Shown: positions 2,097 to 48,228 of the stretch, one piece after another
Numbering within the stretch: position 1 is the stretch's first letter
How the letters are laid out: each line of letters opens with the position of its first letter
Source of the DNA: an uncultured virus (IMG/VR IMGVR_UViG_3300024301_001491)
Lineage: Duplodnaviria; Heunggongvirae; Uroviricota; Caudoviricetes
Direction: 5' to 3' (one strand)
Length of the DNA: 64,000 bases
IMG/VR virus record: IMGVR_UViG_3300024301_001491
Program-made: the position numbers and the translations under genes
Notes under the pieces: generated by a model
What the model was told of the DNA's origin: nothing
Database searches by the model: none
What the model saw: the letters and a program-made list of their open reading frames with translations, nothing else

Positions 2097-3242
2097 TTAA
2101 TCCCTCAGAAGTTTAATCATTCGTTCGGCCAGTGCTTTGAACCATGCTTCGTCATGTCCACGAGTTGTCTCTGCAGCAACTCCAATACGTACACCACTGG
2201 TTTCAACAAAGCCGCGAGTATCACCAGGTACACCATTCTTATTTGCGGTAATACCGTTTGCTTCCAATAAGTCAGCAAACTGACGACCACTATATTTCTC
2301 TTTGTTCAAGTTGATTGTCATCATGTGGCATTGTGTTCCACCTGATACAACATCAACACCGGCATCCATAAATGTTTGTGCCATTGCATGTGCATTGATA
2401 CGTATACGTTTAGCATATAGCTTAAACTCAGGCTGGAGTGCTTCATAGAAACATTGTGCTTTGGCAGCAATAATATGCATCAATGGACCACCTTGAGTTC
2501 CAGGAAATACTGCGCCGTTGATCTTCTTGCTAAAGTCTTCTTCATCCCACATAATCATACCACCACGAGGACCTCGCAATGTCTTATGTGTTGTTGTAGT
2601 CACTACATCTGCATATGGGAATGGACTTGGGTATTCGCCACCGGCAACCAATCCTGAGTAGTGACTGACGTCTGCAAGTAGAATAGCACCAACTGAATCA
2701 GCAATTGCACGGAATGCTTCCCAATCAATGACTTGACTGTATGCACTGGCACCAGCAATAATCATTTTGGGTTGATACAAATTTGCTTTATCAGCAATGT
2801 CTTGGTAATCAAGACGCCCGTTACTATCAACACCATAGCTATAAGACGTAAACCATCTGCCGCTAACGTTGACACCAGCACCATGTGATAAATGTCCACC
2901 ACTTGCCAAGTCCATACCAAGGATAACATCGCCTGGACTCAAGAATGCTTTGAACACTGCTAGGTTAGCATTGGCACCAGAATGAGGTTGGACGTTTGCG
3001 TATTTACAACCAAACAACTCAGTAGCGTATTCAATCGCAAGTTCTTCAACCTTATCAACTTCTTCGCATCCATTGTAATAACGTTTTCCAGGAAGACCTT
3101 CGGCGTACTTATTGGTAAGAATACTACCGCATAGTTCCATTACTGCATCGCTAGTGAAGTTTTCGCTGGCAATAAGTTCGATTGTATCCTGTTGTCTAAC
3201 ACCTTCGTCGGCAACAATTAGTTTAATTCGTGGATCAATCAT
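2097..3242 (-). CDS. glyA: Serine hydroxymethyltransferase
   Basis: LIASEN, NKYAEG, GGHLSHG, TTTHKTLRGPRGG (PLP lysine) and FPGTQGGP motifs. Confidence 0.97.
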   Translation of the reverse strand: MIDPRIKLIVADEGVRQQDTIELIASENFTSDAVMELCGSILTNKYAEGLPGKRYYNGCEEVDKVEELAIEYATELFGCKYANVQPHSGANANLAVFKAFLSPGDVILGMDLASGGHLSHGAGVNVSGRWFTSYSYGVDSNGRLDYQDIADKANLYQPKMIIAGASAYSQVIDWEAFRAIADSVGAILLADVSHYSGLVAGGEYPSPFPYADVVTTTTHKTLRGPRGGMIMWDEEDFSKKINGAVFPGTQGGPLMHIIAAKAQCFYEALQPEFKLYAKRIRINAHAMAQTFMDAGVDVVSGGTQCHMMTINLNKEKYSGRQFADLLEANGITANKNGVPGDTRGFVETSGVRIGVAAETTRGHDEAWFKALAERMIKLLRD

Positions 3243-3544: not shown

Positions 3545-3553
3545 ATCGATTCC

Positions 3554-4525
3554 TTATGTGATTAAATGACTAGTATATCCGTCTTTAAGACTTCTATTAA
3601 CTTCCCAATCGCCAAGATCGTTCCATTCTCTTTGAGAATTTATAGATTCTGTATTGACGTATTTTAGGTTCCTATTGATCTGTGCATCGGATCCAACATT
3701 AATAAATATCGATCCTGGCTTTGCGTCACGCTTAAATAGATACCAAGCTTTTGCATCATAAGCACCAGTCGTGGGAAATGGCATGGTATCTGCGTCAGGG
3801 GTCTTTGTGAGAAAGGGGATTGTTGCGGACTCTATAATAGCTTCACCCTTCTCGCCATCTTTAATATTGCGAGCAACCGCAACGCCTCTTGGAGTGGCAT
3901 TCGGCCAACCGAGTTGAAGTGCGCGAATCATCGTACCAGTTGATACTGCGCAATAGATTTCTGCAGGATCCTTGCCAAGATCGTTGGACACTGTTCGACA
4001 CATGTTGATGAGTCCAGCGGTAACAATTGGAGTCTCTTTAAATCCAAATGGAATGTATCCATATCCGCGTTGGATAGCCCACTTCTTTGCATAACCATTT
4101 AACATAGGCATTGCTGCTGTCTTAAAGAACCGAACTTCAACGTTCTCATAAGCAAATACAGATCCTTGGTGATCTGATACTTGCTTAGATGCTGGCATAA
4201 AGAATACAACCTTCTTGCCGTATTCACGAGCAATAGCAGCGATTGCGTCGGGAGCGTGACCTTGACGTGGAGCTACGTATACAAATGTATCGCGAGGAGA
4301 ATCAGATATCACGCGCTCACCGCCGAAAGCTTTTAGTCCGCCTGGTGCAAGATCTGCACGTAGAATATATTTGTCTTCATACTCTTCTACTACTGGTGTA
4401 CCAAACCTAGATTTATATGTACCCCACATATCGAGGTAGTAGTCGCGCCCATCTGCACGATCCATACCTAAATATAAATCTTTGTTAGTTTCACTCTGCG
4501 TAACTTGGTATAAAGCTTTACCCAT
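3554..4525 (-). CDS. PLP-dependent fold-type II enzyme of the phage DNA-hypermodification type
   Basis: RADL..GGLK (PLP Lys), AVSTGT phosphate loop, YDAKAW, FINVG; resembles the PLP enzymes paired with amino acid:DNA transferases. Confidence 0.75.
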   Translation of the reverse strand: MGKALYQVTQSETNKDLYLGMDRADGRDYYLDMWGTYKSRFGTPVVEEYEDKYILRADLAPGGLKAFGGERVISDSPRDTFVYVAPRQGHAPDAIAAIAREYGKKVVFFMPASKQVSDHQGSVFAYENVEVRFFKTAAMPMLNGYAKKWAIQRGYGYIPFGFKETPIVTAGLINMCRTVSNDLGKDPAEIYCAVSTGTMIRALQLGWPNATPRGVAVARNIKDGEKGEAIIESATIPFLTKTPDADTMPFPTTGAYDAKAWYLFKRDAKPGSIFINVGSDAQINRNLKYVNTESINSQREWNDLGDWEVNRSLKDGYTSHLIT

Positions 4526-4543
4526 AATTCTACCTTTTATAAA

Positions 4544-4617
4544 TGGAGCGGGATAGGAGAATCGAACTCCTAACGGAAGATTGGAAATCTACAGTTTTCC
4601 CATTAAACTAATCCCGC
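4544..4617 (-). tRNA. tRNA-Gly(TCC)
   Basis: Cloverleaf, anticodon loop TT TCC AA, CCA end. Confidence 0.93.
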
Positions 4618-4618
4618 A

Positions 4619-4695
4619 TGGCCTGCCCTGAGAGGTTCGAACTCCCGACCCACAGCTTAGAAGGCTGTTGCTCTATCCAACTGAGCTAAGGGCAG
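4619..4695 (-). tRNA. tRNA-Arg(TCT)
   Basis: Cloverleaf, loop CT TCT AA, CCA end. Confidence 0.95.
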
Positions 4696-4699
4696 GAAT

Positions 4700-4807
4700 C
4701 TACCTTATACTTATGTTACCTGAAGGAAATCTAACATCCACAGAATATCTAGTGACTGCACAAGAAGCCATCATAAGACTAATAAAAATTATTATAACAT
4801 TTTTCAT
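4700..4807 (-). CDS. Putative 35-aa lipoprotein
   Basis: MKNVIIIFISLMMASCAVTRYSVDVRFPSGNISIR, with a lipobox-like MASC. Confidence 0.45.
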   Translation of the reverse strand: MKNVIIIFISLMMASCAVTRYSVDVRFPSGNISIR

Positions 4808-4879
4808 AATATAATTCAGGGATTATTGAAGTATAGGTGGGGAGTCCGTAGACTCCCCGTGCCTTCACACGGCAGTATC

Positions 4880-5419
4880 TTATACTAGATTTGCTACAGC
4901 TTTTAGATAGTTAACAACTGTATCTGGATGTGTCTCTCCATATGGATCACCTGGTGCAAGATCCATAATACCTGGTTCCACAAACGTACGTTCTACGATG
5001 CAATCTTTGATGACTGCCGCATAACGCCATGAGCGGTAACCAAAGCCGAGATTCTTTTTGCTAACAAGCATTCCCATTCCGGTAGTAAATTCGCCATTAC
5101 CATCCGGTAGCGCTTTCAGCTTTTCTACTTTTTGGTCGATCATCCATTTACGCATAACGAATGCATCATTAACAGATACGACATAAACTTCGTCAATGCC
5201 AAGAGAACGAATCTCCTCGTATGCCGCCTCAAACCCAGGAACCTGGAATGTAGAACATGTAGGAGTAAATGCTCCTGGAAGTGAAAAGATTACTACGCGC
5301 TTATTTAAAAACAAGTCTTTACTTGTTTGCAATTCCCATCGGAAAGGATTATCTCCTCCGATACTCTCATCACGAACACGCATATAAAATGTCGTGTCAG
5401 GCACAAATTTCAAACTCAT
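4880..5419 (-). CDS. Peroxiredoxin (Prx5/redoxin family)
   Basis: PGAFTPTCS, VSVNDAFVM, PDGNGEFT and RSWRY motifs; ATG start at 5419 after GGAG. Confidence 0.93.
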   Translation of the reverse strand: MSLKFVPDTTFYMRVRDESIGGDNPFRWELQTSKDLFLNKRVVIFSLPGAFTPTCSTFQVPGFEAAYEEIRSLGIDEVYVVSVNDAFVMRKWMIDQKVEKLKALPDGNGEFTTGMGMLVSKKNLGFGYRSWRYAAVIKDCIVERTFVEPGIMDLAPGDPYGETHPDTVVNYLKAVANLV

Positions 5420-5432
5420 TATATTCTCCAAA

Positions 5433-12703: not shown

Positions 12704-13630
12704 TTATAATTTTTCGATTTTGAAGTTTTCACCACATCGGATACGTTCACTCATTTTTAACCGAGTGCCGGCATCTTTAGTTTTTTTTTCTTCTACTAAC
12801 ACCGGTTCCAGAATAGTCTCTAGAGTTGGTTCTATAGACTCTGGTTCCGGTTCCGTTGTAGTTTGAACTACTTCAGGAATAGACTGTTCTTTTTCTTTAG
12901 ACCGCATTACCGTCTGATTGTATCCTATGAACATCAGTACAGCTAATGGATCAAATACTCCTACGATCATCAGTGTGACAATACGTACAGCCTTTTCTAA
13001 GAAGCTAGGATCAGTCTGTTCGCCGTAAATTAAGGCTGCGATGTACCTGATTGGTCCGATTTCCGCTTCGACCTTGCGCGCTTCTTGGGCAAGGGGGATT
13101 CGCTGGTTGGTGTACTCACTGACTTTGGCTTGCGCTTCCTCGATGGTTTTGTAGGCTGCGGCTCGTTCATCTCTTTGGGAGTCTCTTGCTTTAACTCCTT
13201 TTGTAACGGCACCGAGCTCGGTGTATTTTTCAATTTGTTGATCCAGTTGATCAAGCGTTGCACGAGCGTCATTAATAATCTCCCTTTGATACTTAATTTT
13301 TCCGTCAATCAGTTCTATCTTAGACAGAACATCACCAGTAATCATTCCCTGATCACTATGAGCCTTTGAAAGATATCCAAAGATTCCCATACTGGTCAAA
13401 CACATCAATACGATAATGGCTGTGACAAAATAAGTTTTTAATAAAATTGAAGTCTCTTTCCAGTTTCTGTATAACCAAGAAGCGACAACAAGCTTCGATA
13501 ATTCCAATGCGCCGCCCATAATTGCTATGGACATTGCAGCACCAGAAAAGATTGCCATCAACCCCATGATGGCGTAATATGCAGCAATCGTTGATAACGA
13601 TACAGCCGACAAGAAAAGTAGAGTTGTCAT
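12704..13630 (-). CDS. Membrane protein with coiled coil
   Basis: Three N-terminal TM helices, TSMGIFGYLSKAH, EIGPIRYIA, VFDPLAV. Confidence 0.8.
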   Translation of the reverse strand: MTTLLFLSAVSLSTIAAYYAIMGLMAIFSGAAMSIAIMGGALELSKLVVASWLYRNWKETSILLKTYFVTAIIVLMCLTSMGIFGYLSKAHSDQGMITGDVLSKIELIDGKIKYQREIINDARATLDQLDQQIEKYTELGAVTKGVKARDSQRDERAAAYKTIEEAQAKVSEYTNQRIPLAQEARKVEAEIGPIRYIAALIYGEQTDPSFLEKAVRIVTLMIVGVFDPLAVLMFIGYNQTVMRSKEKEQSIPEVVQTTTEPEPESIEPTLETILEPVLVEEKKTKDAGTRLKMSERIRCGENFKIEKL

Positions 13631-14025
13631 AACTTTACGTGAGTCCTATGAATTCTGCACTGAATTTGGCCGTTATACCATTCAGCTGGTTTTTCTAATA
13701 CTTCATAATGAAATTGAAGTTTAGCTTCTAGGTAAGTCATCGTACCTTTATTGATACAAAGATGCAATATTTCACGTGTAAAATTATTTTCCCCAAGTTC
13801 TGCAACATCTTTCTTGACATCATCCGAAGATGACCAATAGGTCTTCCAATCAGACGGTACCTTTTCTTTCTTCTTTTTTCCTTTAACTTGACGAGTCTTG
13901 CTAAACCAAAAAAGCTTCTTTCCAATGTAACGCCGATTGGTTGTCTTATTGACTATAAGATAAACGAATCCGATATTTTTTTCAATCAAGCCTTCATCAA
14001 ATTCTACATCTTTATATAACCACAT
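13627..14025 (-). CDS. denA: GIY-YIG endonuclease, T4 endonuclease II (DenA)-like
   Basis: GFVY...YIGKK, Y.SSS and conserved E; about 130 aa, downstream of nrdB as in T4. Confidence 0.7.
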   Translation of the reverse strand: MWLYKDVEFDEGLIEKNIGFVYLIVNKTTNRRYIGKKLFWFSKTRQVKGKKKKEKVPSDWKTYWSSSDDVKKDVAELGENNFTREILHLCINKGTMTYLEAKLQFHYEVLEKPAEWYNGQIQCRIHRTHVKL

Positions 14026-15262: not shown

Positions 15263-15523
15263 TTATTCTTTCAAGCCAAAAGCTTCTAGTAGTTGTGAAC
15301 GAGTCATACCGTTACCAGTAATGCGACGTATTACTTTGTTATTGTTATCCAACAGAATCAAAGTAGGAACACTGCGAACACCACGGTTCACAACTTCATT
15401 ACGGTTTTCTTCTTCATCGATATCGATTGCTTCAACCGGCCATGGCAAGTTCATCGTCTTTAAAGTTTCTCCCAATTGCTTACATGGTTGACACCATGAT
15501 GCTTCGAATTTTAATAGTTTCAT
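15263..15523 (-). CDS. Thioredoxin
   Basis: WCQPC motif and VRSVPT cis-Pro loop. Confidence 0.9.
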   Translation of the reverse strand: MKLLKFEASWCQPCKQLGETLKTMNLPWPVEAIDIDEEENRNEVVNRGVRSVPTLILLDNNNKVIRRITGNGMTRSQLLEAFGLKE

Positions 15524-16176
15524 TATAGTTTTCCTGATGCTAATACGATTTTACAAATATGCTCTAATCTCTCTATGTGCTCATAAGCACGCCATGGCGA
15601 AGAATCAATGGCAACGACGCCGTGTCCTTTAATACCAATTATATCATATTCAATATTTCCGTTCCTATTAAGTCCGAGGTTTTCGAAACAGTTATCTGCC
15701 AACTCTTGACTAATAGGTGGAACATCTGGTACATTCTTTGCAACTCTTGTATATCTATTCAACTCTGGAAAGTCCTTGCAGACATTCGATAAATCGATTC
15801 CAGCATGCATAGCTGCAACACAATAGGTAGGATGAAAGTGCATCACTACACGAACATCCAAACCTTGTGGTAATTCTTTCTGTAAACCAAAATGAAGAGG
15901 AATCTCTCCACTAGGTTTTAAGTTCTTGCTAATATCAGTATATTCGGCTTCTTGCCAACAATATAATAACGACGCACTACCTACTCCACTATTGATACCA
16001 GCGATAATATCGATCTTTTTAAATTGATCTGGCTGTAGTGTTTGTTTACGTACACCGCTTGGTGTAATATAAAAATGATTTCGATCGTGATGGCGGATAG
16101 AGACGTTTCCATCCCTACTAGTAATCCAATTGCGCTTGTACGCTTCCATCATTGTGTCACATATAGTTTCTAACAT
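15523..16176 (-). CDS. Class II aldolase/adducin family protein
   Basis: GNVS, ITPSG, PSGE..LH, HFHP and GHG zinc-site motifs. Confidence 0.85.
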   Translation of the reverse strand: MLETICDTMMEAYKRNWITSRDGNVSIRHHDRNHFYITPSGVRKQTLQPDQFKKIDIIAGINSGVGSASLLYCWQEAEYTDISKNLKPSGEIPLHFGLQKELPQGLDVRVVMHFHPTYCVAAMHAGIDLSNVCKDFPELNRYTRVAKNVPDVPPISQELADNCFENLGLNRNGNIEYDIIGIKGHGVVAIDSSPWRAYEHIERLEHICKIVLASGKL

Positions 16177-16180
16177 ATTT

Positions 16181-16357
16181 TTACCAATGTCTGATAACAC
16201 CAGCCATGATGAACATATTTGTTACAACATAGCATAATATTATTAATGTTCTAATTAGAGCGATGGTATCAGCTTCTTGTACGTTCTTTCCTGATTTCTC
16301 ACCAATCGCTCTTGCCCAAAGTCTCCAGAATTTCCTTAACCTTCGCAAGCGATACAT
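16181..16357 (-). CDS. 58-aa membrane protein
   Basis: Manual translation ...WRLWARAIGEKSG...EADTIALIRT...AGVIRHW. Confidence 0.65.
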   Translation of the reverse strand: MYRLRRLRKFWRLWARAIGEKSGKNVQEADTIALIRTLIILCYVVTNMFIMAGVIRHW

Positions 16358-18149: not shown

Positions 18150-18710
18150 TTATCTTGAAAATTCAACCCAACCGGTGATTATATACTTATCATTGCTAAG
18201 TGGTGGATTGCCCCTATGCGTGTGCGTATAACCCGCCGGCCAAATAACCAATCTATTGCGAATAGCATGAATTCTCTTTTTTAAGTATAAGAATTCAGTC
18301 TCTCCGCCCTGTTCAACATCATTCATATACCAAAGAAAGACTCCGAATCTATTACCAGAGTCGATAGAACCTTGCTCAGTATGCCAAATATGATACCCTT
18401 CTCCCGGTCTAGTGCGCTGAATTTTAACTCCATGTACAATAGGCGGACCAAAATCTTTTAATGTAGAATACTGGTTTGCATAATCATCCCACTTAGGCCA
18501 AAAATTATTTAAGAATACTTCAGCTTGACTTCGATCTAGGCTGATAGACAAATCATCTTTAATATGTCTATCTTCTGGTCTATACCAACCTTGACTATTT
18601 TCATATTCAGCAAACATCTTTTCATAATGCTCTATAACCGCTTCGTCTAGTGCATTATCATATATGCCAACGAAGTCGTCTGCAGTATTATTATACTTAG
18701 GTTGTGCCAT
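18150..18710 (-). CDS. 2OG-Fe(II) oxygenase
   Basis: WHTE, YMNDVEQGGETEF, HRG, KYIITGW. Confidence 0.88.
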   Translation of the reverse strand: MAQPKYNNTADDFVGIYDNALDEAVIEHYEKMFAEYENSQGWYRPEDRHIKDDLSISLDRSQAEVFLNNFWPKWDDYANQYSTLKDFGPPIVHGVKIQRTRPGEGYHIWHTEQGSIDSGNRFGVFLWYMNDVEQGGETEFLYLKKRIHAIRNRLVIWPAGYTHTHRGNPPLSNDKYIITGWVEFSR

Positions 18711-24313: not shown

Positions 24314-24769
24314 TTACATTTCCCCTTCATTTAACTTCATTGAAACACGAAGCATCCATTCGTGCTTCTTATGGATATCTAAACGACCTGCCAAGAAATC
24401 AGCAAGTCCTTGTTTGTTCATTTGATTAGCCATATCAAACGCTTCTTGTAAACAACCAATAACAGATGCATTTGCAGCATATGTGCTAACAACCATGGCG
24501 TAACACGTCTGTGGCTTTTCTTTGTCTTCTTCTAGTGTAGCATTATTATACAATTCGCTCAGACTAATTGGAGCATATGGACCTTCGATACGAATCTTTT
24601 CTGCAATAGTGTCTACGGCACCATGGACTTCTTCGTATAGATCACCGAAGAATTTATGATACTGACTAAAGTGAATACCTTCCACATTCCAATGGTATGA
24701 ATGTGTTTTGAAATACATTATGAACGTATTTGCCAGACATTTGTTAAGTGATTTTGTTAATTCGTCCAT
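24314..24769 (-). CDS. dps: Dps family mini-ferritin
   Basis: HSYHWNVEG..F..YH.FF..LYEE...D.IAE.IR ferroxidase motif, K..WML. Confidence 0.92.
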   Translation of the reverse strand: MDELTKSLNKCLANTFIMYFKTHSYHWNVEGIHFSQYHKFFGDLYEEVHGAVDTIAEKIRIEGPYAPISLSELYNNATLEEDKEKPQTCYAMVVSTYAANASVIGCLQEAFDMANQMNKQGLADFLAGRLDIHKKHEWMLRVSMKLNEGEM

Positions 24770-30003: not shown

Positions 30004-30050
30004 ATTATACCATATCTTCGATTTGTTGTACATATAATACTAAAGTATTA
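30004..30050 (-). promoter_or_regulatory. Early-type promoter with TAATACT-TT-AGTATTA inverted repeat
   Basis: TGTACA-17-TATAAT. Confidence 0.75.
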
Positions 30051-30998
30051 ACTTGCCTTCATAGTACCAATTTTAGTATTAACTTGTACTCCAGAGAATG
30101 CACCATGAGTCGGTCTGTGTTCAACTGTTGCCACGTGTCTACCTTCGTCGTCGTGGATCTTAACTAGATTACTTCCGGCGGTATGACGCATTTCAAACTT
30201 CTTAGACTTCTCAATAGCTTGAGCGTGATCAAGTTGATGGCTAGGAACTGACTTGTTCTTTTCTCCATTGACGTAGTCATATGGTACTGCAGGTTTTTCA
30301 GATTTCATAATATAACGTAGATGCTTACGTTGATCTTCAATAGAAGCCTTGTTGAACTGTTTACTATGGTGTGCTGCAGCCTCTGCCTGTGTTTCTTTAT
30401 TTGCAGCTTTTACTTTAGGATCATTACGTACGGCTTTAATTTCTGCTCCGCTCTTGCCTTCTAAGCCGGCTTTCTTTTTACCTTTTGCCCATATAGAGCC
30501 AACCTCAGTTTTAATATGACCTTTATTCTGACTGTCGAAAGTACCGATACCGTTATTACTTAGAGTACCTTGCGTTGCCTTTAAAGACGCTCCATGTAGT
30601 TTTCCATCTTTAGTCTTAACAACAACGTCATGCGGGTTTTGAATACGATCAGCTTTAGCATTAATCAAATGATCGATTCCCTTTGAAGTATGATGAACTT
30701 CATGAATATCAGCAGGATTAATCTTGTGATTCTTTTTAAGACTTTCAATATAAGACTCGGCGGATGCTTTAGCTGATTGCAAAGCACGACTCTTTAGATG
30801 ATCAGGAAGCTTGTCAAAAGCAGCTTTACCCTTCGATCCAATCTCTTGCATTCGTTTTTTATGTTCTGGATCGTTGTTAGTCTTAGAACCAGTCATATGA
30901 TGCAAATGCATCGCTGTTGCAGTTTCATATGCAACGCCAAAGTGTTCATTAGAAGAACTACCAGAGGCTTCAGTTAAAAAGTCTATAAAGTTTTTCAT
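30048..30998 (-). CDS. Probable capsid-packaged protein, PD-(D/E)xK nuclease-like
   Basis: MKNFIDFLTEA; G..YE, HDVVV...GASLK. Confidence 0.55.
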   Translation of the reverse strand: MKNFIDFLTEASGSSSNEHFGVAYETATAMHLHHMTGSKTNNDPEHKKRMQEIGSKGKAAFDKLPDHLKSRALQSAKASAESYIESLKKNHKINPADIHEVHHTSKGIDHLINAKADRIQNPHDVVVKTKDGKLHGASLKATQGTLSNNGIGTFDSQNKGHIKTEVGSIWAKGKKKAGLEGKSGAEIKAVRNDPKVKAANKETQAEAAAHHSKQFNKASIEDQRKHLRYIMKSEKPAVPYDYVNGEKNKSVPSHQLDHAQAIEKSKKFEMRHTAGSNLVKIHDDEGRHVATVEHRPTHGAFSGVQVNTKIGTMKAS

Positions 30999-31742
30999 TT
31001 ATACAAAACATCCCAGGTTTAATTTATCTTTTAAAATAGTAACGCTCTTTCCATCAACTGGAGCAATGTTGTATGGAGATTTAGATTTCATACTAAATTG
31101 CATTTCAAACGTAAACTGATAATTTCCAGAGCCCTTGTATTGAACACGGGCTCTATACGTAGCCTTTGCAGAAGCACCGAATGTAGGAACACCTTTTAAT
31201 TTCAGAGGGTTTGCCTTTCCCATTAAATAGAAACCATGCGTGCCAACATTGACATAGTGTGTATCTTTACGATTATAATACTGCTCTATTTTCGTTGCAG
31301 GAATTTCACCACGGATATCGGCAAAGGTATCACGATCTCTTTCATATCTTTGTTTAGGAGTCATCTTACCAGCAGTTGCATTCCATTCAACGTCTTTATC
31401 TCTTTTATACGGTTTTTCTTTCCATTGCTTTTTGATAAGGTCAAACAACTTAACCTCTTTAGCAAGATCAGCAATGAACCTTTTCTCATCCTCGTCGGCT
31501 TTAATATCACCGAACTTCCAAGGGTTTCTCTTATCTTTAGAATCGTATTTTATGACCAATGAACCTGCTGATGCAGCAGTAATCTTAAGCTCACACCCGG
31601 CTTCTTTCTTTTTATGCAAGAGCATTAAGTCAGGCTGGTCATGACCAGCGCCTGCAGGCTTAAACGATTTAGGCACGAAGCCCATTGGTTTAAGCATATT
31701 ACTTGCATTTATTTCGTATTGGAAGCCTTGTTGAGCGGCCAT
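30999..31742 (-). CDS. PD-(D/E)xK nuclease-like protein
   Basis: GFQYE...PDL...CELK; late promoter at 31769-31776. Confidence 0.55.
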   Translation of the reverse strand: MAAQQGFQYEINASNMLKPMGFVPKSFKPAGAGHDQPDLMLLHKKKEAGCELKITAASAGSLVIKYDSKDKRNPWKFGDIKADEDEKRFIADLAKEVKLFDLIKKQWKEKPYKRDKDVEWNATAGKMTPKQRYERDRDTFADIRGEIPATKIEQYYNRKDTHYVNVGTHGFYLMGKANPLKLKGVPTFGASAKATYRARVQYKGSGNYQFTFEMQFSMKSKSPYNIAPVDGKSVTILKDKLNLGCFV

Positions 31743-31803: not shown

Positions 31804-32799
31804 TTAATTGAAAAACCCCTCGAGGGAGTCTTGTTTGCCCCAATTATATCGCCTATAATACTCTGGCGATATATGAACACTAGAACTGGCTTCCATATGC
31901 ATCTTGGCATACTTCTCACCATCCATATGGTACCACTCCTCTGGGGGCATTATAACCTTGTTTCCACTATGTGTATTTAGTAGTTCAATAAACCTAAGCG
32001 TAAGTCGGATCCGATCATCACGTGATCCAAAAAATGGAGTACCTTTGAAATATCCAGACTTAGGAAGCTTCCTATCCTCATATTCGACAGGCACTGGTGC
32101 TCCGTAATATACATCCACCCCATATTCACGCTCAAGTTCCTGGCCTTGTGCAACATACTCTGATATCATATTATCTAGATTATCGTCATGACGAAGCAAG
32201 TGATGACGGATATCAATGGAACCAAGACTAAATGTGATCTGTCCTTTAGGTGTCATTCCACGGAATTCATTCTTAAGACCGTTCTTTAATGTACCAAACA
32301 ATGTTTTGCCGTTAGTACGTAACACCACATCATTTGCCTGAGAAAAAGCAGGAGTATGACTGTCACCCACCGAAATGTCATTGAGCCAATCGATATTTTC
32401 TTGCTTTAGAGATGGTACGTTTGATGTACACCAACTAGATAGCATATCACACCACTTTTCAGTGATTCCATCATATGTAGTTGCATTTCCGATACGTTTA
32501 CGCAGTTGTTCACCCCAATTGGGCATGTCGAAATCTAGTGATACAACATTCTTACATTGCATAACACGATCGATTTTCTCAAAAATATCTTGGCCCGCAC
32601 CGCCAAATAGATTAAGTGTTCCACCAAAGTTTACACCATGCTCGATGTACACTAACGATCCGTTAAGTATATTGGTGGAACACTTATGATCCACTTCAGC
32701 GTTAAGCTGTTCCGCCCACACCTGTGACCATCCCCGTACGTGGGAGTTTGCAAGCTTGGGAATATTGCTAATAGGATTTGTAATTACAGGCTTTGACAT
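31804..32799 (-). CDS. Putative DNA-modification enzyme: BGT-like N-terminal domain plus SGNH-like C-terminal domain
   Basis: TLNLFGG loop; GDSH, LGSID and SVH motifs; last gene of the modification operon. Confidence 0.5.
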   Translation of the reverse strand: MSKPVITNPISNIPKLANSHVRGWSQVWAEQLNAEVDHKCSTNILNGSLVYIEHGVNFGGTLNLFGGAGQDIFEKIDRVMQCKNVVSLDFDMPNWGEQLRKRIGNATTYDGITEKWCDMLSSWCTSNVPSLKQENIDWLNDISVGDSHTPAFSQANDVVLRTNGKTLFGTLKNGLKNEFRGMTPKGQITFSLGSIDIRHHLLRHDDNLDNMISEYVAQGQELEREYGVDVYYGAPVPVEYEDRKLPKSGYFKGTPFFGSRDDRIRLTLRFIELLNTHSGNKVIMPPEEWYHMDGEKYAKMHMEASSSVHISPEYYRRYNWGKQDSLEGFFN

Positions 32800-33935
32800 T
32801 TTGCTTTGTATTCTTCTACCGTTAAACCGGCCTTCTTAATAATATAATCATCGGATGGGTGTTTAGTGATACCATTGAATGTATCTACCAATCCTAATTG
32901 TAACATAGCCTCTTGTCTACCAAATGGATGATCTTTAATCTTGCATGAAGACCACACCTTATCAAAGTCCAAATGGTTATACGCTGCTCCAGGTCGAATA
33001 TAGTTCTCTACCCATCGGATGTAATCACAACACACGTCTTCTGCATTATATGGAAACGATCCTGTATCCAAGTAGATTTGTTGCATGACCTCATCAAGGA
33101 ATTGGTCCTGATTCATCTTCTTGGTTGGAGTTGCCAAATAAGAAATACATTCACGAGCATTGGTTCCGTAGTAGAACATAGAGTCGCGATTTACATACTG
33201 AGGGAACCAATCGGCAATATCTGCAACTGTTGCTGCGTACTGAAAGAAGTATTGGCGCAAACCATTCTTCTTATTCCAATCGAGCATAAACCCACCTAGT
33301 TCACGTAGATCTCGCTTACCACCTTTTTCCAACCATTCAGCCATTTCACGTGCAAGTCGTGGAGCATATTCACAGAGGTAGTAATCACCGCCTCGTTTGT
33401 AATCACCACCTTCTGGTGGTTTAGGGAATGCCGGAAACTGGTATCCAACCGAAGTATAGAAAGGCTTGTGATAGATCCTCACGATCCTCGTCATATCTTC
33501 AATGGTCCGACATTCATGAAGATGGAAAATAATAGTATTATGATAGCCTGATGGTTTAGTTGCGTAGTTAATTGCAGAACCAGTTACACGATGTAAAATG
33601 AATAGATAGAGCCATTCCGCCAATTTAAAGTCTGAATGTTTTCCAGTCCAGTCTTTAGCAACAATTTGACGTTGGATGGTGGCATTGCCACTTTCCATCT
33701 TTTTCCAGTATGGGTGTTCTTCAGTCCAACCGTAAAAGCAATCGTTGATGATCTGAGAGAATCCTGCGTACTTACGTTCTACCACATCGTATAGCTCAAC
33801 GTTTTCCATTAGGCTATCACCCATGTTCGACTCACTATGAGGTAACCAACCAAAGTTACAAAGTTCTTGTTGTTTAGTGGCTAACTCAAAGTATCGCAGA
33901 TACTCTTCATAATGTTTGGTTGGTTCAATGTTCAT
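32784..33935 (-). CDS. Amino acid:DNA transferase-like protein (aGPT-Pplase family)
   Basis: FQYAATVADIAD...YGTNA and EDVCCDYIRW resemble the family patterns Q...D...G..A and E..LCE..K; sits in the dCMP hydroxymethylase operon. Confidence 0.6.
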   Translation of the reverse strand: MNIEPTKHYEEYLRYFELATKQQELCNFGWLPHSESNMGDSLMENVELYDVVERKYAGFSQIINDCFYGWTEEHPYWKKMESGNATIQRQIVAKDWTGKHSDFKLAEWLYLFILHRVTGSAINYATKPSGYHNTIIFHLHECRTIEDMTRIVRIYHKPFYTSVGYQFPAFPKPPEGGDYKRGGDYYLCEYAPRLAREMAEWLEKGGKRDLRELGGFMLDWNKKNGLRQYFFQYAATVADIADWFPQYVNRDSMFYYGTNARECISYLATPTKKMNQDQFLDEVMQQIYLDTGSFPYNAEDVCCDYIRWVENYIRPGAAYNHLDFDKVWSSCKIKDHPFGRQEAMLQLGLVDTFNGITKHPSDDYIIKKAGLTVEEYKAKCQSL

Positions 33936-34387
33936 AACTTAATAATATCTACGCCTGATTCTTTAAACATATTTTCAGAAAGCTTTAACGATTTTTCCCA
34001 TATATCAGGAATCACTTCATCAGTAGACCAGTAAACTTTCTTAATACCTACTTGAATGATCCCTTTAGCACACTCAGAACATGCAGGCAATCCCCACACA
34101 AAAAGAGAAGAGTCTGCCAAAGATACTCCGTTATAAGTTGCATTATAAATGCAATTCATTTCAGCGTGAACTACGTATTGATATTTAGTCTCTCTGTTCG
34201 AGTACCGAGATTCATAATCAAATATTCCACGGGGAAATCCGTTATATCCCTGAGACAAAACTTGTCCCTTTTCTCCAATTGCAACTGCACCAATCTTTCT
34301 GCTTGGATCTTTACTCCAAGCAGAAATTTCCTTGGCTAATGAAATATATCTGTTATTCCATTTATTTGTTTGTCGTTTCGAATTCAT
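33932..34387 (-). CDS. cd: dCMP deaminase
   Basis: GYNGFPRG, HAEMN and PACSECAK zinc motifs. Confidence 0.93.
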   Translation of the reverse strand: MNSKRQTNKWNNRYISLAKEISAWSKDPSRKIGAVAIGEKGQVLSQGYNGFPRGIFDYESRYSNRETKYQYVVHAEMNCIYNATYNGVSLADSSLFVWGLPACSECAKGIIQVGIKKVYWSTDEVIPDIWEKSLKLSENMFKESGVDIIKL

Positions 34388-35061
34388 GCTTCTTTTTTAA
34401 TCAAGTGCCAGTGGCGATCATATATGTGCAGAGAACCAGCATTCCACATAATACGGCCTAAACCATATGATGACGAAGTTCGTGCATTAAGTCCGATTAA
34501 CAATTGGGCTTGTACAAACTTTTGCCATGCGTAGTCATTCTTATAACCGTAAATTGCATCGTTACTGCGCATATACACCATCGCATGCAGTTGGCCATTC
34601 CGAAGAACATATTGTACGTTATTTGTGCACATGAAATCGGACATACCGTTCTTATTATAATCAGTATGCATTGAAGGACGAGTATAGATCATATTAGCAC
34701 GTCGAGAATTGGGATCACGTGCTAATTCTTCTAACACATGTTTAAACTGATAACCATTCTCTTCAGAGTAAATACACCATCCATAGTTAGAATTAATAAA
34801 TCCGTCTGGATCTGCAACTTGCGCCCATACGGCAGGTGGTCCGCCTTCAATGTCATTAACATTGAGAGACATTGAACGATACCAGCTCAGTTCTTTTTCT
34901 ACGTATTCTTGATTGACTGTACCAAAAATTTTATCTTCATCTGCAATAAAGGTTGCATTCAACAACTCAATCGTTCGAACTCCTGTATTACGATCTACTG
35001 TAAATTGTTCTGCAAGTAATGCATTATTAAATTCTGTACGTATATCTTCTACTCGAATCAT
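34384..35061 (-). CDS. gp42: dCMP hydroxymethylase (T4 gp42-like)
   Basis: INSNYGW, SRRA.MIYTRPSM, SDFMCTN.VQY, MRSNDAIYGYKNDYAWQ, AGSLHIY; Asp at the dCMP-specificity position. Confidence 0.88.
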   Translation of the reverse strand: MIRVEDIRTEFNNALLAEQFTVDRNTGVRTIELLNATFIADEDKIFGTVNQEYVEKELSWYRSMSLNVNDIEGGPPAVWAQVADPDGFINSNYGWCIYSEENGYQFKHVLEELARDPNSRRANMIYTRPSMHTDYNKNGMSDFMCTNNVQYVLRNGQLHAMVYMRSNDAIYGYKNDYAWQKFVQAQLLIGLNARTSSSYGLGRIMWNAGSLHIYDRHWHLIKKEA

Positions 35062-35417
35062 TTATTTTCTCCTTTAATCACTTTGCGGCCAAATATATCT
35101 TTCTTTGACACATCTTGACCTGGAATCTGCCCACGCATATATGCTGCAAGGAACGATGCATAATTAATCAAATCTAATGCAGAATCTTCAATAGATTCAA
35201 AGTTAGCTTTCCCGCCTTGTTCCATAGTCTCTAGAACAGATACCATGCGAAGATATTTAGCGTTAATAATATCCATAACAGACCACACTCCACGCGGATA
35301 ATAGTCTGCTTGTTGTACTGAGGAATTGGGATTATTATAATCTAATCCTTTACGTTCTTGAAGTTCTGCTGCCTCAAGAAGAATATTTGCTGATGCTCGT
35401 GTATATTGTGTCATGTT
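35058..35417 (-). CDS. All-alpha NTP-pyrophosphatase-like protein (Nmad1/DUF1599-like)
   Basis: Q.RKG.DY...K..R...ESIEDSALDLINYA. Confidence 0.7.
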   Translation of the reverse strand, partial: NMTQYTRASANILLEAAELQERKGLDYNNPNSSVQQADYYPRGVWSVMDIINAKYLRMVSVLETMEQGGKANFESIEDSALDLINYASFLAAYMRGQIPGQDVSKKDIFGRKVIKGENK

Positions 35418-35423
35418 CACCTC

Positions 35424-35978
35424 TTAATAAATTGTTGCATCTCTTAGACCAAAGGCTACACAATCGCCGGTTTTGGTCGCTATACGATGATCGTAATAGT
35501 ATGAACTATTATACTGACTTTTCTGAAAATAGAATTCAAACTTCTTCGAATCCACAATCATGGCAAAGTCGATAATATAGTTATCATCCGATTCATCCAT
35601 ATAAGCCGTGACTAGATAATCAATGTCCATACAGTTTTTGATGTATGTGCCGATTTTCTTGCCAGAGTAGGTAAAGTATTTAGCGCCGGTTTTATGTCGC
35701 TTTACTTCAAACTTCTTACCGTCAACCTTAACGTCCCAAATATACGAGTCTTTGTCTCTAAAGTTAAACTCTTTGGGGTTACGTTCACCGCCTAGAACTT
35801 TTACTAAAGCAAACTCGATCGCAATACGTTTACAGTCTCGGAAGACTTCTTCTTGCGTTCTAGAATCTGCACCACGACTAAAGATCGCCACAGCCATTGA
35901 GGCTATATCGTCTTCTATCTCTTCTTTGGGGATCCGTACTGTTCCGGAGTCTTTTAGCTTTTGCGCAATTTCAATCAT
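35424..35978 (-). CDS. PD-(D/E)xK nuclease-like protein
   Basis: IAIEFA...WDVKVDGKKFEVK. Confidence 0.55.
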   Translation of the reverse strand: MIEIAQKLKDSGTVRIPKEEIEDDIASMAVAIFSRGADSRTQEEVFRDCKRIAIEFALVKVLGGERNPKEFNFRDKDSYIWDVKVDGKKFEVKRHKTGAKYFTYSGKKIGTYIKNCMDIDYLVTAYMDESDDNYIIDFAMIVDSKKFEFYFQKSQYNSSYYYDHRIATKTGDCVAFGLRDATIY

Positions 35979-36289: not shown

Positions 36290-37256
36290 TTGCAGTTTTG
36301 TATGCGTATTCTATGGCTCTGGAAGCTTCTGTGGTCAATGGTCGTTTTTGGTATATATTACTGGTCTCACGATCTAACTGGAGGATCAATTGGGAGATTT
36401 CAGACTCTGTGATTGCATAACCTTGACGAACCGCATTACATGCAATCGACGTCATGATCTTGTAAATCATAGAGTATCTACCAGAACCATCGGTACGTGC
36501 AATTGCCTTATAATCACCGATCAAACGATGATTAATGAATGGGCAATCTGAGTATGAAGTCCAATGGAAACTTCGTGAACTCTCGCGAAGTTTATTCTGG
36601 CGATATGCAACCACTTCTTTCTGCATAGACTCTGGTAGACGATCCATGAAAGAATCTCCAGTACGTTCCGTATACTCGTGCTTTGCTAAAAGACTATCTA
36701 CTTCAATATTAGTGCCAGGATTACTAAAAATGAAATTATTGGCATTAGGATACTTAGCAGGAACATAATACATTCTACTAAGATCTTTTGTTTGTAGATC
36801 TCCAATTGACTCAAGTTCTGTATTGAGTGCAAACCAGAAGTGACGGATTTCATTCGACTGAATATCTCTGGAGAGAGGGAAGACGAGTCTAAACTTAGGA
36901 TGCTCATTCGTACTACTGGCGGTAGAATAACAAACATAACGCCAGTTACCATAACGTTTCTGCAACTCGTCTTTTAGATTTCCCTCAAACACTGCTTGGT
37001 CGACATCTACCGCGGCCCAACCTGCCCACTTAATTACATTAGCGTTGGCGCGGGTGGTTCCTTCTTTGTAAACTGCAGGAGATATCAGCGGAGAAGGAGT
37101 AACCCCTTTCGGGGTATACTCGCCTTTCCGTGCTTTATAACCTGGCTTAGTTGCCAAGTGGTATAAAGCAGTTTCAAACTTATCGAAGCTATCAAAGTCG
37201 ACACTTACGTCAGTCTTGTTATCAAAGATAGATTTGAAAACCGTGAAACCAATCAT
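36285..37256 (-). CDS. AEP-superfamily primase/polymerase-like protein
   Basis: AAVDVD, YSTASS...KFRLVFPL, D.QTKDLSRMYYVP, helical C-terminal domain. Confidence 0.7.
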   Translation of the reverse strand: MIGFTVFKSIFDNKTDVSVDFDSFDKFETALYHLATKPGYKARKGEYTPKGVTPSPLISPAVYKEGTTRANANVIKWAGWAAVDVDQAVFEGNLKDELQKRYGNWRYVCYSTASSTNEHPKFRLVFPLSRDIQSNEIRHFWFALNTELESIGDLQTKDLSRMYYVPAKYPNANNFIFSNPGTNIEVDSLLAKHEYTERTGDSFMDRLPESMQKEVVAYRQNKLRESSRSFHWTSYSDCPFINHRLIGDYKAIARTDGSGRYSMIYKIMTSIACNAVRQGYAITESEISQLILQLDRETSNIYQKRPLTTEASRAIEYAYKTAM

Positions 37257-37675
37257 TTTGTAAATACCTGTTCCAATAAACCAACATTATCTACATGAGT
37301 CGGAGCAGTCCAACCTTCTGGCTTGATCAAGTCTGGAAGTCCTAGAGGATTAGGACGACTTTCTTTAATACCAACAACTTTGGACATATTTGCTTTATAA
37401 ACACGGTTCCATGCTTCATAACCATTCACTCGGAATGCATCAAGTGTACCCAATGCAACCACAGCCAAATCAATCAAAGCATCAACTGTATCATCAGCTG
37501 CACTTTCACCGCCCTCATTATAAGCCTTATTCATCTCATCCAACTCTTCTTGCAAAAAGTCAATACGAAATTTAAGGAACGTTTTTAACTGTTCTGCAGT
37601 TAACTTCTCAATTGCAGTATGTACTCCATAGTGGTCGTGCATATGCGCCATATCTTCAATCAAATTCACACTCAT
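37253..37675 (-). CDS. MazG/PRA-PH-like NTP pyrophosphohydrolase
   Basis: LQEELDE, DALIDL.VV, V.KANMSK, KPEGW.AP. Confidence 0.8.
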   Translation of the reverse strand: MSVNLIEDMAHMHDHYGVHTAIEKLTAEQLKTFLKFRIDFLQEELDEMNKAYNEGGESAADDTVDALIDLAVVALGTLDAFRVNGYEAWNRVYKANMSKVVGIKESRPNPLGLPDLIKPEGWTAPTHVDNVGLLEQVFTK

Positions 37676-37900: not shown

Positions 37901-39291
37901 TTAATATTTAAATCCCTCGCCTACTGACTTCATTCTTTGTCCAAAATCTGACTTGTCGAAGATTGGTGTATCGTTTACTTGTCCAGAATCTGAGATATTC
38001 TTTTGTGCAGAATCTTCGACATCGAATAATTTCATCCGAGAACGATCCACGCCGATAACAAAGCGCTTGTAATAAGAAGGATCATTGTAACGATTTTTAA
38101 GCTGCTTAACCATAAGTTGACCCAGGTTTTCGAGCTCCTCCGTTGAAATAAGAGCAAACATAAAATCGACAGTAGCAGGCAATCCGAAAGATTCAGAAGT
38201 ATCAGTAAGTCCCACATCCGTGTTGTCATAGCCGCCTCGAGTAGTTTGTGTTGCTGATAAAATAGGAACATTATACTTAACAGCCATACCACGGATTTCT
38301 TCAGCAATCGATTTAATATATGTGTAAGAGTTAACGTTAGCACCTTGCTTGATTCGAGAAGAAGTACAGATGTTCAAGTAATCAATGATAATCATATCGG
38401 GGAGAAAGTTACGTTTCATCTTCAACTCTTCGATCAAAGCTTGGAAGTGACCAGTGTGTGCAGATGCAGTTGGATATTCCTTGATGATTAGTTTACCGCG
38501 GGTCTTCTTGGCGACACGTTCGAATCGAGTCTCGTAGATGTCCTTATCAACCGTTGCCATTTCTTCCATGGTCATATTCATAAGGTTTGCATCAATACGT
38601 TCTGCGATACGTTCTTCTGCCATTTCCATTGTAATATACAATACATTCAATCCTTGCATTAGAGTTGATGCAGCCATATGACACATAGCCAATGACTTAC
38701 CAACGCCAGTGCCAGCAAGAATTACATTAAGTGTTTTGCGAGATAAACCACCCTTAGTAATCTTATTCAATAGATCAATATCAAATGCAACCTTCTCTTC
38801 TACACGAGTATAAAAATCATATCGAGATTCAAAGTCTTAATGTAATCGTGGCCGATAGCAGAGTCGAATGATACCGCCAATGCATCGGACAAGATAGAAG
38901 GAATTGCATCCTTACTAGTCTTAGTATCTTTGCCATCGATGATACTAATTGAATCTAGAATCGCGTTGTATACTGCACGATCTTTACAGAACTTTTCACT
39001 GGTCTCAACTAACCATTCCATGTTATCAGTACGAAAGTTTAGATTGTCGATGTATGTATCGATACTATCGACTTGATCTCCGTTTAGTTTTTCAATATCA
39101 CGAATCTGGATCTTTAAGATATCCATGCTTGCAGGCTTATTGTACTTTGCAAAAAAGTCCTGCAATGTGTTGAATACAACATTCTCAAAATGATCCGTGA
39201 AGTACTCAGACTTCAGGAAAGGAGAAACTTTTCTGCAAAATTCCTCATTGTGAATGAGGTTTGATAAGATGGTCTGTTGAACGCTCGTTGT
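37901..39291 (-). CDS. gp41: Replicative helicase (T4 gp41), split by a 1-nt deletion near 38838/38839
   Basis: N-terminal part 38800..39291; C-terminal part with AGTGVGKS, MEMAEE, IDYLNI, SATQ; one added base restores IGHDYIxDFESRYDFYTRVEEK. Confidence 0.9.
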
Positions 39292-39589
39292 CATCAATAA
39301 ATCCTAAGTGGTCTTTTTCTAATCCGTAGAATAACAATTGTACCAAAAAATCCCCTAATTCAGCTTCGAATTCGATCTTATCGTATCCATGGCGATATTC
39401 TGGAACTTCGATAACTTCGTATTCGAATCTAAGCTTTAGCTTGTCGTTTTCTTTATCCTCGTCGAAGGAGACATTCTTATACAGAAAGATAATATCTGCA
39501 AAGTCTCCTTCTTCGAGAGATAGCGCATGGGTATCTACGCCATCTATCATTCGACCTAAAACTTTATGCGGCTTCAGTTGCGTCATCAT
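39245..39589 (-). CDS. Hypothetical protein at the T4 gp40 position (possible head vertex assembly chaperone)
   Basis: 114 aa between uvsX and gp41. Confidence 0.5.
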   Translation of the reverse strand: MMTQLKPHKVLGRMIDGVDTHALSLEEGDFADIIFLYKNVSFDEDKENDKLKLRFEYEVIEVPEYRHGYDKIEFEAELGDFLVQLLFYGLEKDHLGFIDDNERSTDHLIKPHSQ

Positions 39590-47824: not shown

Positions 47825-48154
47825 TTAATCCTTTTTAGAATATTTGACGTCATGCTCGTATAGGAAAGCTAAACAACATGCGGCATGCGCCAAGTGATGG
47901 ATACCAGATTCAGGATCAGTGGTTTCACCCATCTTCCACGCCCACACGTGTCGTTCGAATGCTGCAAAATAACGATCTAGTGCTTCATCTACATGTTGCC
48001 AATTGTTTGGTTTATATTTTGCTGCTCCAAATGTGAGCACTTTCACCATTTCAGCTTGAGCAAGAGGAGGAATCAGATCGTAACGAAGTTTATCGTTATC
48101 GAACTTCATACCTGTTGGAACATCATTGCTCTTCGTCAAAATTCTTTTTTTCAT
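47825..48154 (-). CDS. dATP/dGTP diphosphohydrolase-like protein (DUF5664)
   Basis: G.KFDNDK.RYDLIP, GAAKY..NNW, DPESG.HHLAHA. Confidence 0.8.
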   Translation of the reverse strand: MKKRILTKSNDVPTGMKFDNDKLRYDLIPPLAQAEMVKVLTFGAAKYKPNNWQHVDEALDRYFAAFERHVWAWKMGETTDPESGIHHLAHAACCLAFLYEHDVKYSKKD

Positions 48155-48228
48155 TATATAACTTCTCCAAACTAATATAGGCTGACATATGATATTATAC
48201 ATCAGCCTATATTTAAAATACACTAAGC

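Follow-up and report, generated by a model that had tools for sequence, protein, structure and literature searches.

Which enzyme opens the further modification of 5-hydroxymethylcytosine (5hmC, or hmC) in T4-like phages that appear to make this base, and in which neither the kinase of known pathways nor a recognizable glycosyltransferase is found? The question is raised by T331, a gene on the minus strand of a 64-kb stretch of DNA (IMG/VR record IMGVR_UViG_3300024301_001491; the whole stretch of 64,000 nucleotides is called the window). The window derives from a marine myovirus of the T4-like kind, known from uncultured material, and codes for gp23, gp20, gp43, gp44/62/45, UvsW/X/Y, RegA, gp46/47-like proteins, ribonucleotide reductase (RNR), ThyX and serine hydroxymethyltransferase (SHMT); T331 is located amid its replication genes. 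The major capsid protein is 58-61% identical to its counterparts in cyanomyoviruses and pelagiphage HTVC008M. Published hypermodifications of 5-hydroxymethylpyrimidines (here, as throughout, according to the available excerpts of the papers cited) start either with glycosyl transfer, for hmC and 5-hydroxycytosine (hoC), or with phosphorylation by 5-HMUDK, for 5-hydroxymethyluracil (hmU).

T331 probably helps to build a further DNA base modification on hmC without the kinase of those pathways. More specifically, and with the chemistry drawn from gene context, it may be a DNA 5hmC O-acyltransferase that supplies the leaving group for an amino-acid-type hypermodification of cytosine without a kinase, a reading to which we assign a probability of about 0.4. 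A first-pass annotation of the window had proposed such a role for a fusion of a beta-glucosyltransferase (BGT) acceptor domain with an SGNH acyltransferase, next to an AADT-type transferase and in place of a missing kinase. That interpretation is upheld in part: the SGNH half, the 5hmC context and the failure to find a kinase stand, the likeness to BGT is suggestive, and the adjacent AADT finds no confirmation.

The two domains of T331

The gene and its domains are laid out as follows.

31804..32799, minus strand: T331, putative DNA-modification gene; 331 amino acids (aa), two domains, phrog_13881, no Pfam family
32389..32799, minus strand: N-domain of T331, residues 1-137; Rossmann/flavodoxin-like beta-alpha, with an HGxNFGG-x-LNLFGG loop and S87-L88-D89-x-x-x-P93
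31807..32385, minus strand: SGNH-fold domain of T331, residues 139-331; GDSH 145-148 (Ser147), G164 and G193-S-I-D196-I-R198-H-H200, with further conserved residues R243, R263, E303 and S307-V-H309

Translation of the open reading frame places the motifs where they had first been read: TLNLFGG at residues 61-67, SLDFD at 87-91, GDSH at 145-148, LGSID at 192-196 and SVH at 307-309. T331 matches phrog_13881 (E 4.7e-93) and also the N-terminal third of phrog_17781, a profile of 795 positions; a Pfam search at E values up to 10 returned no family, Lipase_GDSL included, and a sequence search of the PDB returned no match. A word-index protein search found 493 homologues, HMMER found 389 representatives at no more than 50% identity (82 of them at E ≤1e-30), and the ESM Atlas cluster that holds T331 has 1,311 members and no name. 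Because nearly all of the HMMER matches span both halves, the two-domain unit constitutes the T331 family. In one homologue (P0121, 445 aa), residues 27-74 of an N-terminal extension give a sub-threshold Tudor-like match (PF21743, E 2.2e-5, 24.6 bits against a cut-off of 27.2).

In the AlphaFold2 model of T331 (pLDDT 91.1, pTM 0.87) the N-terminal part is beta-alpha and the C-terminal part has the SGNH fold, which structure comparison assigns to residues 139-322. Foldseek returned six matches to the model at E ≤0.001, all of them esterases and mostly named as GDSL/SGNH-type, and a BFVD fold search returned just uncharacterised family members followed by generic phage SGNH domains. Among the homologues only P0212 matched Pfam PF00657, at E 0.02, which is below the cut-off. 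The blocks follow the canonical order, with GDS-H after strand 1, G164 after strand 2 (residues 157-160), G193-x-I-D196 after strand 3 and H309 near the C-terminus. Conservation was counted in an alignment of 125 sequences, which remained of 150 listed representatives (≤50% identity) once 25 shorter than 280 aa had been dropped. Ser147 and H148 are present in all 125, G145 in 124, D146 in 123 and G164 in 111; D196, R198, H200, R243, R263 and H309 are each invariant, and E303 is kept in 123. Fold, block order and the invariance of Ser147 and His309 bear out the SGNH half of the first-pass annotation, and the domain is apparently active, with a Ser/His pair.

The N-domain resembles T4 BGT (GT-B fold; PDB 1c3j) in having an L-N-[FL]-[FY]-G-G loop after strand 3 and a D-x-x-x-P after strand 4, in the same topological places and conserved in both families, and both enzymes come from phages with a gp42-type hydroxymethylase. 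BGT residues N70, F72 and D100 have roles in base flipping and catalysis. When a T331 N-domain alignment was compared by hhalign with T4 BGT and five 50%-identical homologues, a single weak local match resulted (residues 59-93 against BGT 66-104, E 0.019, probability 2.4%), which pairs N63/F65/G66-G67/D89/P93 with N70/F72/G73-G74/D100/P104 of BGT, residues that are kept among the BGT homologues. In the T331 alignment, N63 is found in 122 of the 125 sequences, F65 in 94 (and Tyr in another 11), G66 in 102 and G67 in 116, and position 89 is Asp in 76 and Glu in 16, with P93 in 96 and R102 in 114. Structure comparison of the N-domain ranked T4 BGT first of 48,161 chains, T4 BGT and AGT being the closest. 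Against these points, the full T331 family aligned with T4 BGT at an hhalign probability of 0.8%, a Foldseek search of the PDB with the N-domain alone gave no match at E ≤0.001, and the Pfam BGT profile PF09198 had no match in G001, the near-identical 136.5-kb IMG/VR record (83% complete by CheckV) on which whole-genome profile searches were run and which includes the T331 gene. T331 and BGT have no significant sequence or profile similarity, and T331 has its SGNH-fold domain where BGT has a UDP-glucose-binding C-terminal Rossmann domain. A BGT-like acceptor domain is thus a suggestive description, the best structural analogy at hand and not a demonstrated homology.

Genes linked to T331

The genes that bear on the function of T331 lie mostly just upstream of it on the same strand.

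32784..33935, minus strand: partner gene, 383 aa; helical, family unassigned by Pfam or PHROG, invariant E-D-V-C-C motif
33932..34387, minus strand: dCMP deaminase; PF00383 E 1.1e-16, phrog_174 E 1e-39
34384..35061, minus strand: gp42-type dCMP hydroxymethylase (ThyA homologue); 55% identity to T4 gp42, E 2e-91
35058..35420, minus strand: small MazG-like/all-alpha NTP pyrophosphohydrolase-like protein, 120 aa; phrog_18404 E 4.5e-16
35424..35978, minus strand: DenB-like endonuclease IV homologue; phrog_1360 E 7.5e-9
37253..37675, minus strand: MazG-like nucleotide pyrophosphohydrolase, candidate dCTPase; PF01503 E 1.6e-5, phrog_671 E 5.8e-19
3554..4525, minus strand: pyridoxal phosphate (PLP)-dependent fold-type II enzyme, M6 gp52-like; phrog_7093 E 3.4e-55
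2097..3242, minus strand: SHMT, adjoining the PLP enzyme gene; PF00464 E 1e-145

The DenB endonuclease IV of T4 is specific for dC-DNA.

The stop of the 383-aa gene overlaps the ATG start of T331 by 16 nucleotides, and the two proteins also occur as one chain: residues 6-346 of the 383-aa protein align with residues 410-772 of a 790-aa metagenomic fusion, P0202 (BLASTP E 1e-48, 31% identity), whose N-terminal half is a T331 homologue, and P0201 (719 aa) and P0212 (740 aa) have the same build. Of 580 viral-contig matches to T331 confirmed by tblastn, the 80 best IMG/VR loci were taken and their neighbouring genes counted by tblastn, with separate counts for loci having at least 3 kb on both sides.

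383-like gene: near T331 in 70 of 80 loci; in 35 of 35 with at least 3 kb on both sides
gp42-like gene: 54 of 80; 31 of 35
dCMP deaminase gene: 55 of 80; 31 of 35
PLP-type gene (weak PF00291 match): 65 of 80; 29 of 35

Each of the ten loci that have no 383-like gene has one flank shorter than 1.1 kb. Where a PLP-type gene is present (65 loci), it is directly downstream of T331 in 55. These genes belong to phrog_7093 (E 7e-34 to 1e-66), the same PHROG as M6 gp52 (2.2e-159), and the PLP enzyme of the window, which shares 59% identity with the product of the gene immediately downstream of T331 in locus L014, is displaced by 27 kb to a place beside the SHMT gene; locus L038 has an SHMT homologue gene inside the module. 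Work on purified M6 gp52 showed that it decarboxylates amino-acid:nucleobase conjugates in DNA in a PLP-dependent reaction (Lee et al. 2021, PMC8989533). Adjacency, overlapping ends and natural fusions show that T331 is genetically coupled to the 383-aa helical protein, and it is likewise coupled to the gp52-family PLP enzyme. A predicted complex of T331 with the 383-aa protein (score 0.00, mark 0.32) gave no verdict and was not used.

Several other genes accompany the module. Directly after T331 in the window (30048-31742, minus strand) are a 247-aa gene (phrog_26930, of unknown function), whose product has by eye a PD...E-x-K nuclease-like motif, and a 316-aa gene without a family; among the 80 loci they occur only in L010 and L011, both identical to the window phage, and the pair resembles an insertion by which the PLP gene was moved out of its position downstream of T331. 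A paralogue of the 383-aa protein, of about 300-330 aa, is encoded in 26 of the 80 loci between the 383-like gene and T331 or adjoining them, as at L014:9015-9998, L015:9006-9980, L024:9000-10004 and L074:5572-6459 (strands as in the loci), and is absent from the window. Also absent from the window is a 218-aa protein (L064:4761-5417) whose conserved YGKCF...THW...D pattern may, judged by eye, represent a Cys-His-Asp triad. It is found in the module in two of the 80 loci and fused to the N-terminus of the T331 homologue P0130 (residues 1-217; BLASTP E 1e-16), and it had no Pfam or PDB match.

The 383-aa protein has 954 homologues in protein searches. It gave no match in Pfam (E up to 10), in PHROG, in a profile search of the PDB or by tblastn against 50,697 phage records, and Pfam searches with 12 diverse relatives gave no relevant match. 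In hhalign comparisons the sole detectable relative was its own 324-aa paralogue (probability 69%, E 4.4e-5); M6 gp55/HMUDK_hel reached a probability of 0.1-0.3%, with no PF18723 profile match, and an 18-sequence HMUDK_hel alignment and the C-terminal domain of the Aeromonas phage 44RR2.8t fusion (described below) stayed below 1%. The clusters nearest to it in ESM features carry HMUDK_hel on 11-36% of their members, and one of them carries ADDT on 12%. By eye, an acidic-x-x-x-Cys motif near the C-terminus is common to the 383-aa, AADT and HMUDK_hel families, and the EDVCC of the 383-aa protein would, by this resemblance, agree with the proposal of Lee et al. that AADTs use an active-site thiolate.

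The gp42-type gene lies 1.6 kb upstream of T331. Its product retains Asp at the equivalent of Escherichia coli ThyA D169 ('RSND') and has Asp at the equivalent of N177 ('NDYAW'), which is the gp42 pattern. The D169N signature has been assigned to 5-hydroxy-dCMP synthases (Lee et al. 2026, PMC13326640); with Asp and not Asn at that position, the homologue was rejected as a candidate 5-hydroxy-dCMP synthase, and with Asp at the N177 equivalent, as in T4 gp42, it was rejected as a dUMP hydroxymethylase. Among the thymidylate synthase-type genes near T331 in the IMG/VR loci, 48 of 54 match 'MRSND...ND', four more proved on inspection to have RSND...ND, and two were unresolved. With a ThyA-like gene 55% identical to T4 gp42 and bearing its specificity residues, the context supports the earlier proposal that 5hmC is the substrate.

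In the same 50,697 cultured-phage records, T331 homologues are found in 43: 38 from Aeromonas phages, two from Stenotrophomonas phages and three from Tenacibaculum phages. The Aeromonas phages are those of the 44RR2.8t/31 and 25 groups, and the available sections of Petrov 2010 (PMC2993671) list gene 42 alleles for exactly the Aeromonas 44RR, 31 and 25 groups and name glucosyltransferase genes just for the T-even-type phages and CC31. The same paper left open a further modification of Hm-dCMP in RB69 and JS98, which have gp42 and no glucosyltransferase genes; the Aeromonas phages that bear T331, with gp42 and with no glucosyltransferase genes named, are in the same position. Their gp42 homologues (44RR2.8t and phage 25) are 54-56% identical and have both diagnostic Asp residues.

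In 44RR2.8t and phage 31, the T331 unit is part of a 795-aa protein with a different C-terminal domain, unrelated to the 383-aa protein, which matches HMUDK_hel (PF18723) at E 0.0036, below the cut-off. HMUDK_hel in M6 is the stand-alone protein gp55, encoded beside the kinase gp54; T331, in the place of the kinase, thus repeats the pairing of an activating enzyme with a helical partner. A sodium:solute symporter gene (PF00474, E 6e-53; annotated as glucose cotransporter-like) is directly upstream of the 795-aa fusion gene in 44RR2.8t (L001:4405-8385). In phage 25 (L004:2773-6044), genes for a UDP-galactopyranose mutase (PF03275, E 5e-54) and a 358-aa phrog_14998 protein accompany the T331 homologue. 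Distant relatives of the 358-aa protein are annotated as glycosyltransferases, and it is paired with the mutase in Erwinia phage FBB1 too; the cluster suggests galactofuranosyl-hmC in that phage group. The possibility that the 358-aa protein is the split C-terminal half of the 44RR fusion was rejected, as BLASTP showed no similarity.

The kinase that the first-pass annotation held to be missing is indeed not to be found as far as the searches went. The 5-HMUDK (PF18748) and HMUDK_hel (PF18723) profiles had no match in G001, PF18748 had none in 44RR2.8t or phage 25, whose genomes are complete, and in five further T331-bearing contigs of 83-152 kb it had none over the cut-off, one match of 10.5 bits being most likely an ordinary nucleotide kinase. 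M6 gp54, gp55 and gp51 were absent by tblastn from all 80 loci, and phages of Pseudomonas, Salmonella, Bacillus and Delftia are not among the 43 T331-bearing cultured records. T331 itself has the SGNH fold and no P-loop kinase domain, and is at most a functional analogue of 5-HMUDK. Kinase-less clusters would have escaped the survey of metagenomes by Lee et al. 2021 (PMC8989533), because it took 5-HMUDK as its anchor.

A possible acyl-transfer route and its alternatives

The module is of a known kind, the post-replicative hypermodification of a 5-hydroxymethylpyrimidine, which it shares with the 5-HMUDK-AADT-PLP decarboxylase pathway of M6, ViI and PaMx11 (Lee et al. 2018, 2021); what is new is the base, the lack of a recognizable kinase and the use of an SGNH enzyme. 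Fusions of activating and downstream enzymes occur in that pathway too (PMC8989533), as does HMUDK_hel, weakly matched by the 44RR fusion. The base there is uracil, whereas the gp42-type enzyme of the T331 module points to cytosine, and the module has no recognizable P-loop kinase and a 383-aa partner without a profile match to ADDT or HMUDK_hel. The arabinosyl and galactosyl 5-hydroxycytosine pathways of RB69, DLP3 and RL38J1 (Lee et al. 2026, PMC13326640) are similar in being T4-like cytosine hypermodification clusters around a ThyA homologue, and RL38J1 has a UDP-galactopyranose mutase, like the one beside the phage 25 homologue. They differ in that their ThyA homologues are D169N whereas the window and Aeromonas enzymes keep Asp, and in that neither G001 nor G002 has a match to a GT-B glycosyltransferase profile (GT1, PF00534; BGT, PF09198). 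Our literature search found no paper on the T331 family or on an AADT-type pathway acting on hmC. A widespread module with a gp42-type hmC synthase and gp52-like and AADT-like-looking partners, in which neither a kinase nor a recognizable glycosyltransferase was found, has an SGNH enzyme placed where the activating step is expected.

As a 5hmC O-acyltransferase, T331 would be a conserved core enzyme of a kinase-less 5hmC-modifying pathway in T4-like phages. Its N-domain would present the flipped 5hmC to the SGNH active site, where an acyl-enzyme would form on Ser147, the acyl group being most simply an acetyl delivered by a thioester, and from Ser147 the group would pass to the primary 5-CH2-OH of hmC to give 5-acyloxymethylcytosine. 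The carboxylate ester would then stand in for the phosphate that 5-HMUDK adds when thymidine is hypermodified: by way of its conserved Cys, the 383-aa partner may displace the carboxylate with an amino acid, and the gp52-like PLP enzyme may decarboxylate the conjugate to leave an amine-bearing cytosine. This scheme is favoured because it is the simplest chemistry that uses a Ser/His SGNH domain, hmC, a Cys-bearing partner and a PLP enzyme where no kinase or glycosyltransferase was found. Activation of a hydroxyl for substitution by ester formation is established for O-acetylserine and for O-acetyl- and O-succinylhomoserine.

The scheme, if true, would mean a new cytosine modification in abundant marine T4-like myoviruses and in Aeromonas phages 44RR2.8t, 31 and 25, a new way of activating a nucleobase hydroxyl, and a tool enzyme for derivatising 5hmC. 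The larger claim, somewhat doubtful at present, is that T331 is the first member of a new class of DNA-modifying enzymes, in which a BGT-like base-flipping domain and an SGNH acyl-enzyme domain together make up a nucleobase O-acyltransferase, and that ester activation of 5hmC opens an amino-acid-derived hypermodification of cytosine, for example a counterpart of 5-NeOmdU or 5-NedU.

Several observations weigh against acyl transfer to 5hmC. Compared with SGNH/GDSL hydrolases and O-acyltransferases (4rsh, 3mil, PatB 7tjb, OatA 6vjp), T331, which Lipase_GDSL fails to match, does not have the block III Asn: the sequence there is G193-[N in 67 or S in 52]-I195-D196, with Ile at the Asn position in 112 of 125. 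Nor does it have the block V Asp, the residue three before H309 being variable (Gln in 25, Ser in 24, Gly in 24, Arg in 24 and Lys in 19), for which E303 might be a stand-in. T331 differs from those enzymes further in its extra invariant or near-invariant residues (D196, R198, H200, R243, R263 and E303), in its N-terminal Rossmann-like domain and in its cytoplasmic DNA-metabolism context; the invariant R198, R243 and R263 together with His200 would be just as well suited to a ligand that bears a phosphate. PatB and OatA, both SGNH O-acyltransferases, act outside the cytoplasm, and no enzyme that would make an acyl donor is evident in the module. The neighbouring gene has not proved to be the AADT of the first-pass annotation: besides the lack of Pfam and PHROG matches and the non-significant comparison with gp55, hhalign gave M6 gp51, which itself matches PF18724 (ADDT) at 1.4e-46, a probability of 0.1-0.3%. 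CheckV puts the completeness of G001 and the other contigs at 26-83%, and the missing parts of these genomes may encode a kinase. Finally, phage 25 has a T331 homologue and no 383-like gene, and Tenacibaculum phage PTm5 has one with neither a 383-like nor a gp42-like gene.

The most durable of the alternatives, which we consider unlikely, is that T331 is a tailoring O-acyltransferase, adding a terminal acyl (acetyl) cap to a hydroxyl of hmC or of an attached sugar or amino alcohol, with no leaving group involved. SGNH transferases typically acylate primary hydroxyls of carbohydrates, the phage 25 homologue follows the mutase and phrog_14998 genes where no 383-like gene is found, and the neighbour in 44RR2.8t is a sugar-type symporter. 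Capping would leave unexplained the fusions with the 383-aa family, the presence of a 383-like gene in every one of the 35 well-flanked marine loci, and how a gp52-like/383-like pathway starts without a kinase.

The invariant residues R198, H200, R243 and R263 around the SGNH motifs, the closeness of the N-domain to T4 BGT and AGT, the sugar-related neighbours in both Aeromonas phage groups and the lack of a canonical oxyanion Asn and triad Asp would suit a transferase of another sort, in which the SGNH domain is the donor-binding half of a BGT-like enzyme that moves a glycosyl or phosphoryl-linked group from an NDP-sugar or phosphoester donor to hmC. We hold this to be improbable: a strictly invariant GDS-H Ser, together with a His at the C-terminal end, is the mark of chemistry by way of an acyl-enzyme, another protein of phage 25 is already a candidate glycosyltransferase, and we know of no SGNH-fold glycosyl- or phosphotransferase.

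There is also little likelihood that T331 is a hydrolase, an esterase that strips an ester-linked group from modified DNA or from an intermediate in maturation or editing. Nearly all of its best structural matches are esterases, but the module has no evident enzyme to form such an ester, the missing activation step would go unfilled, and fusion with the 383-aa protein points to reactions that follow one another on a single substrate. Least probable is action on a non-DNA substrate (a nucleotide, a cofactor or a host lipid or carbohydrate, with the cluster position reflecting co-regulation only), for which the great diversity of SGNH enzymes, the commonness of phage SGNH domains in tail spikes and the PTm5 homologue without a gp42-like gene may be cited, against a closely kept gene order with the gp42-like, dCMP deaminase, 383-like and gp52-like genes, the fusions, the setting among replication genes and the want of any T331 match to tail-spike architectures beyond the SGNH core.

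Other features of the window

The gp41/DnaB-like helicase (37901-39297, minus strand) is split into two open reading frames in different frames, one of 165 aa with the DnaB N-terminal domain and one of 289 aa with DnaB_C. Since the downstream frame is open back to about position 38,845, a frameshift of one nucleotide or an assembly error is suggested rather than two genes. Adjoining the sliding-clamp gene, at 47825-48223 (minus strand), is a gene for a 132-aa protein with a dATP/dGTP diphosphohydrolase N-terminal domain of the MazZ/DatZ type (PF18909, E 2.4e-34). Auxiliary metabolic genes at 2097-5431, 15523-16200, 18150-18710 and 24314-24769 encode SHMT, cytochrome c, peroxiredoxin, a class II aldolase, a 2OG-Fe(II) oxygenase and ferritin, and a SegE-like GIY-YIG endonuclease is encoded at 13627-14025, beside the RNR genes.

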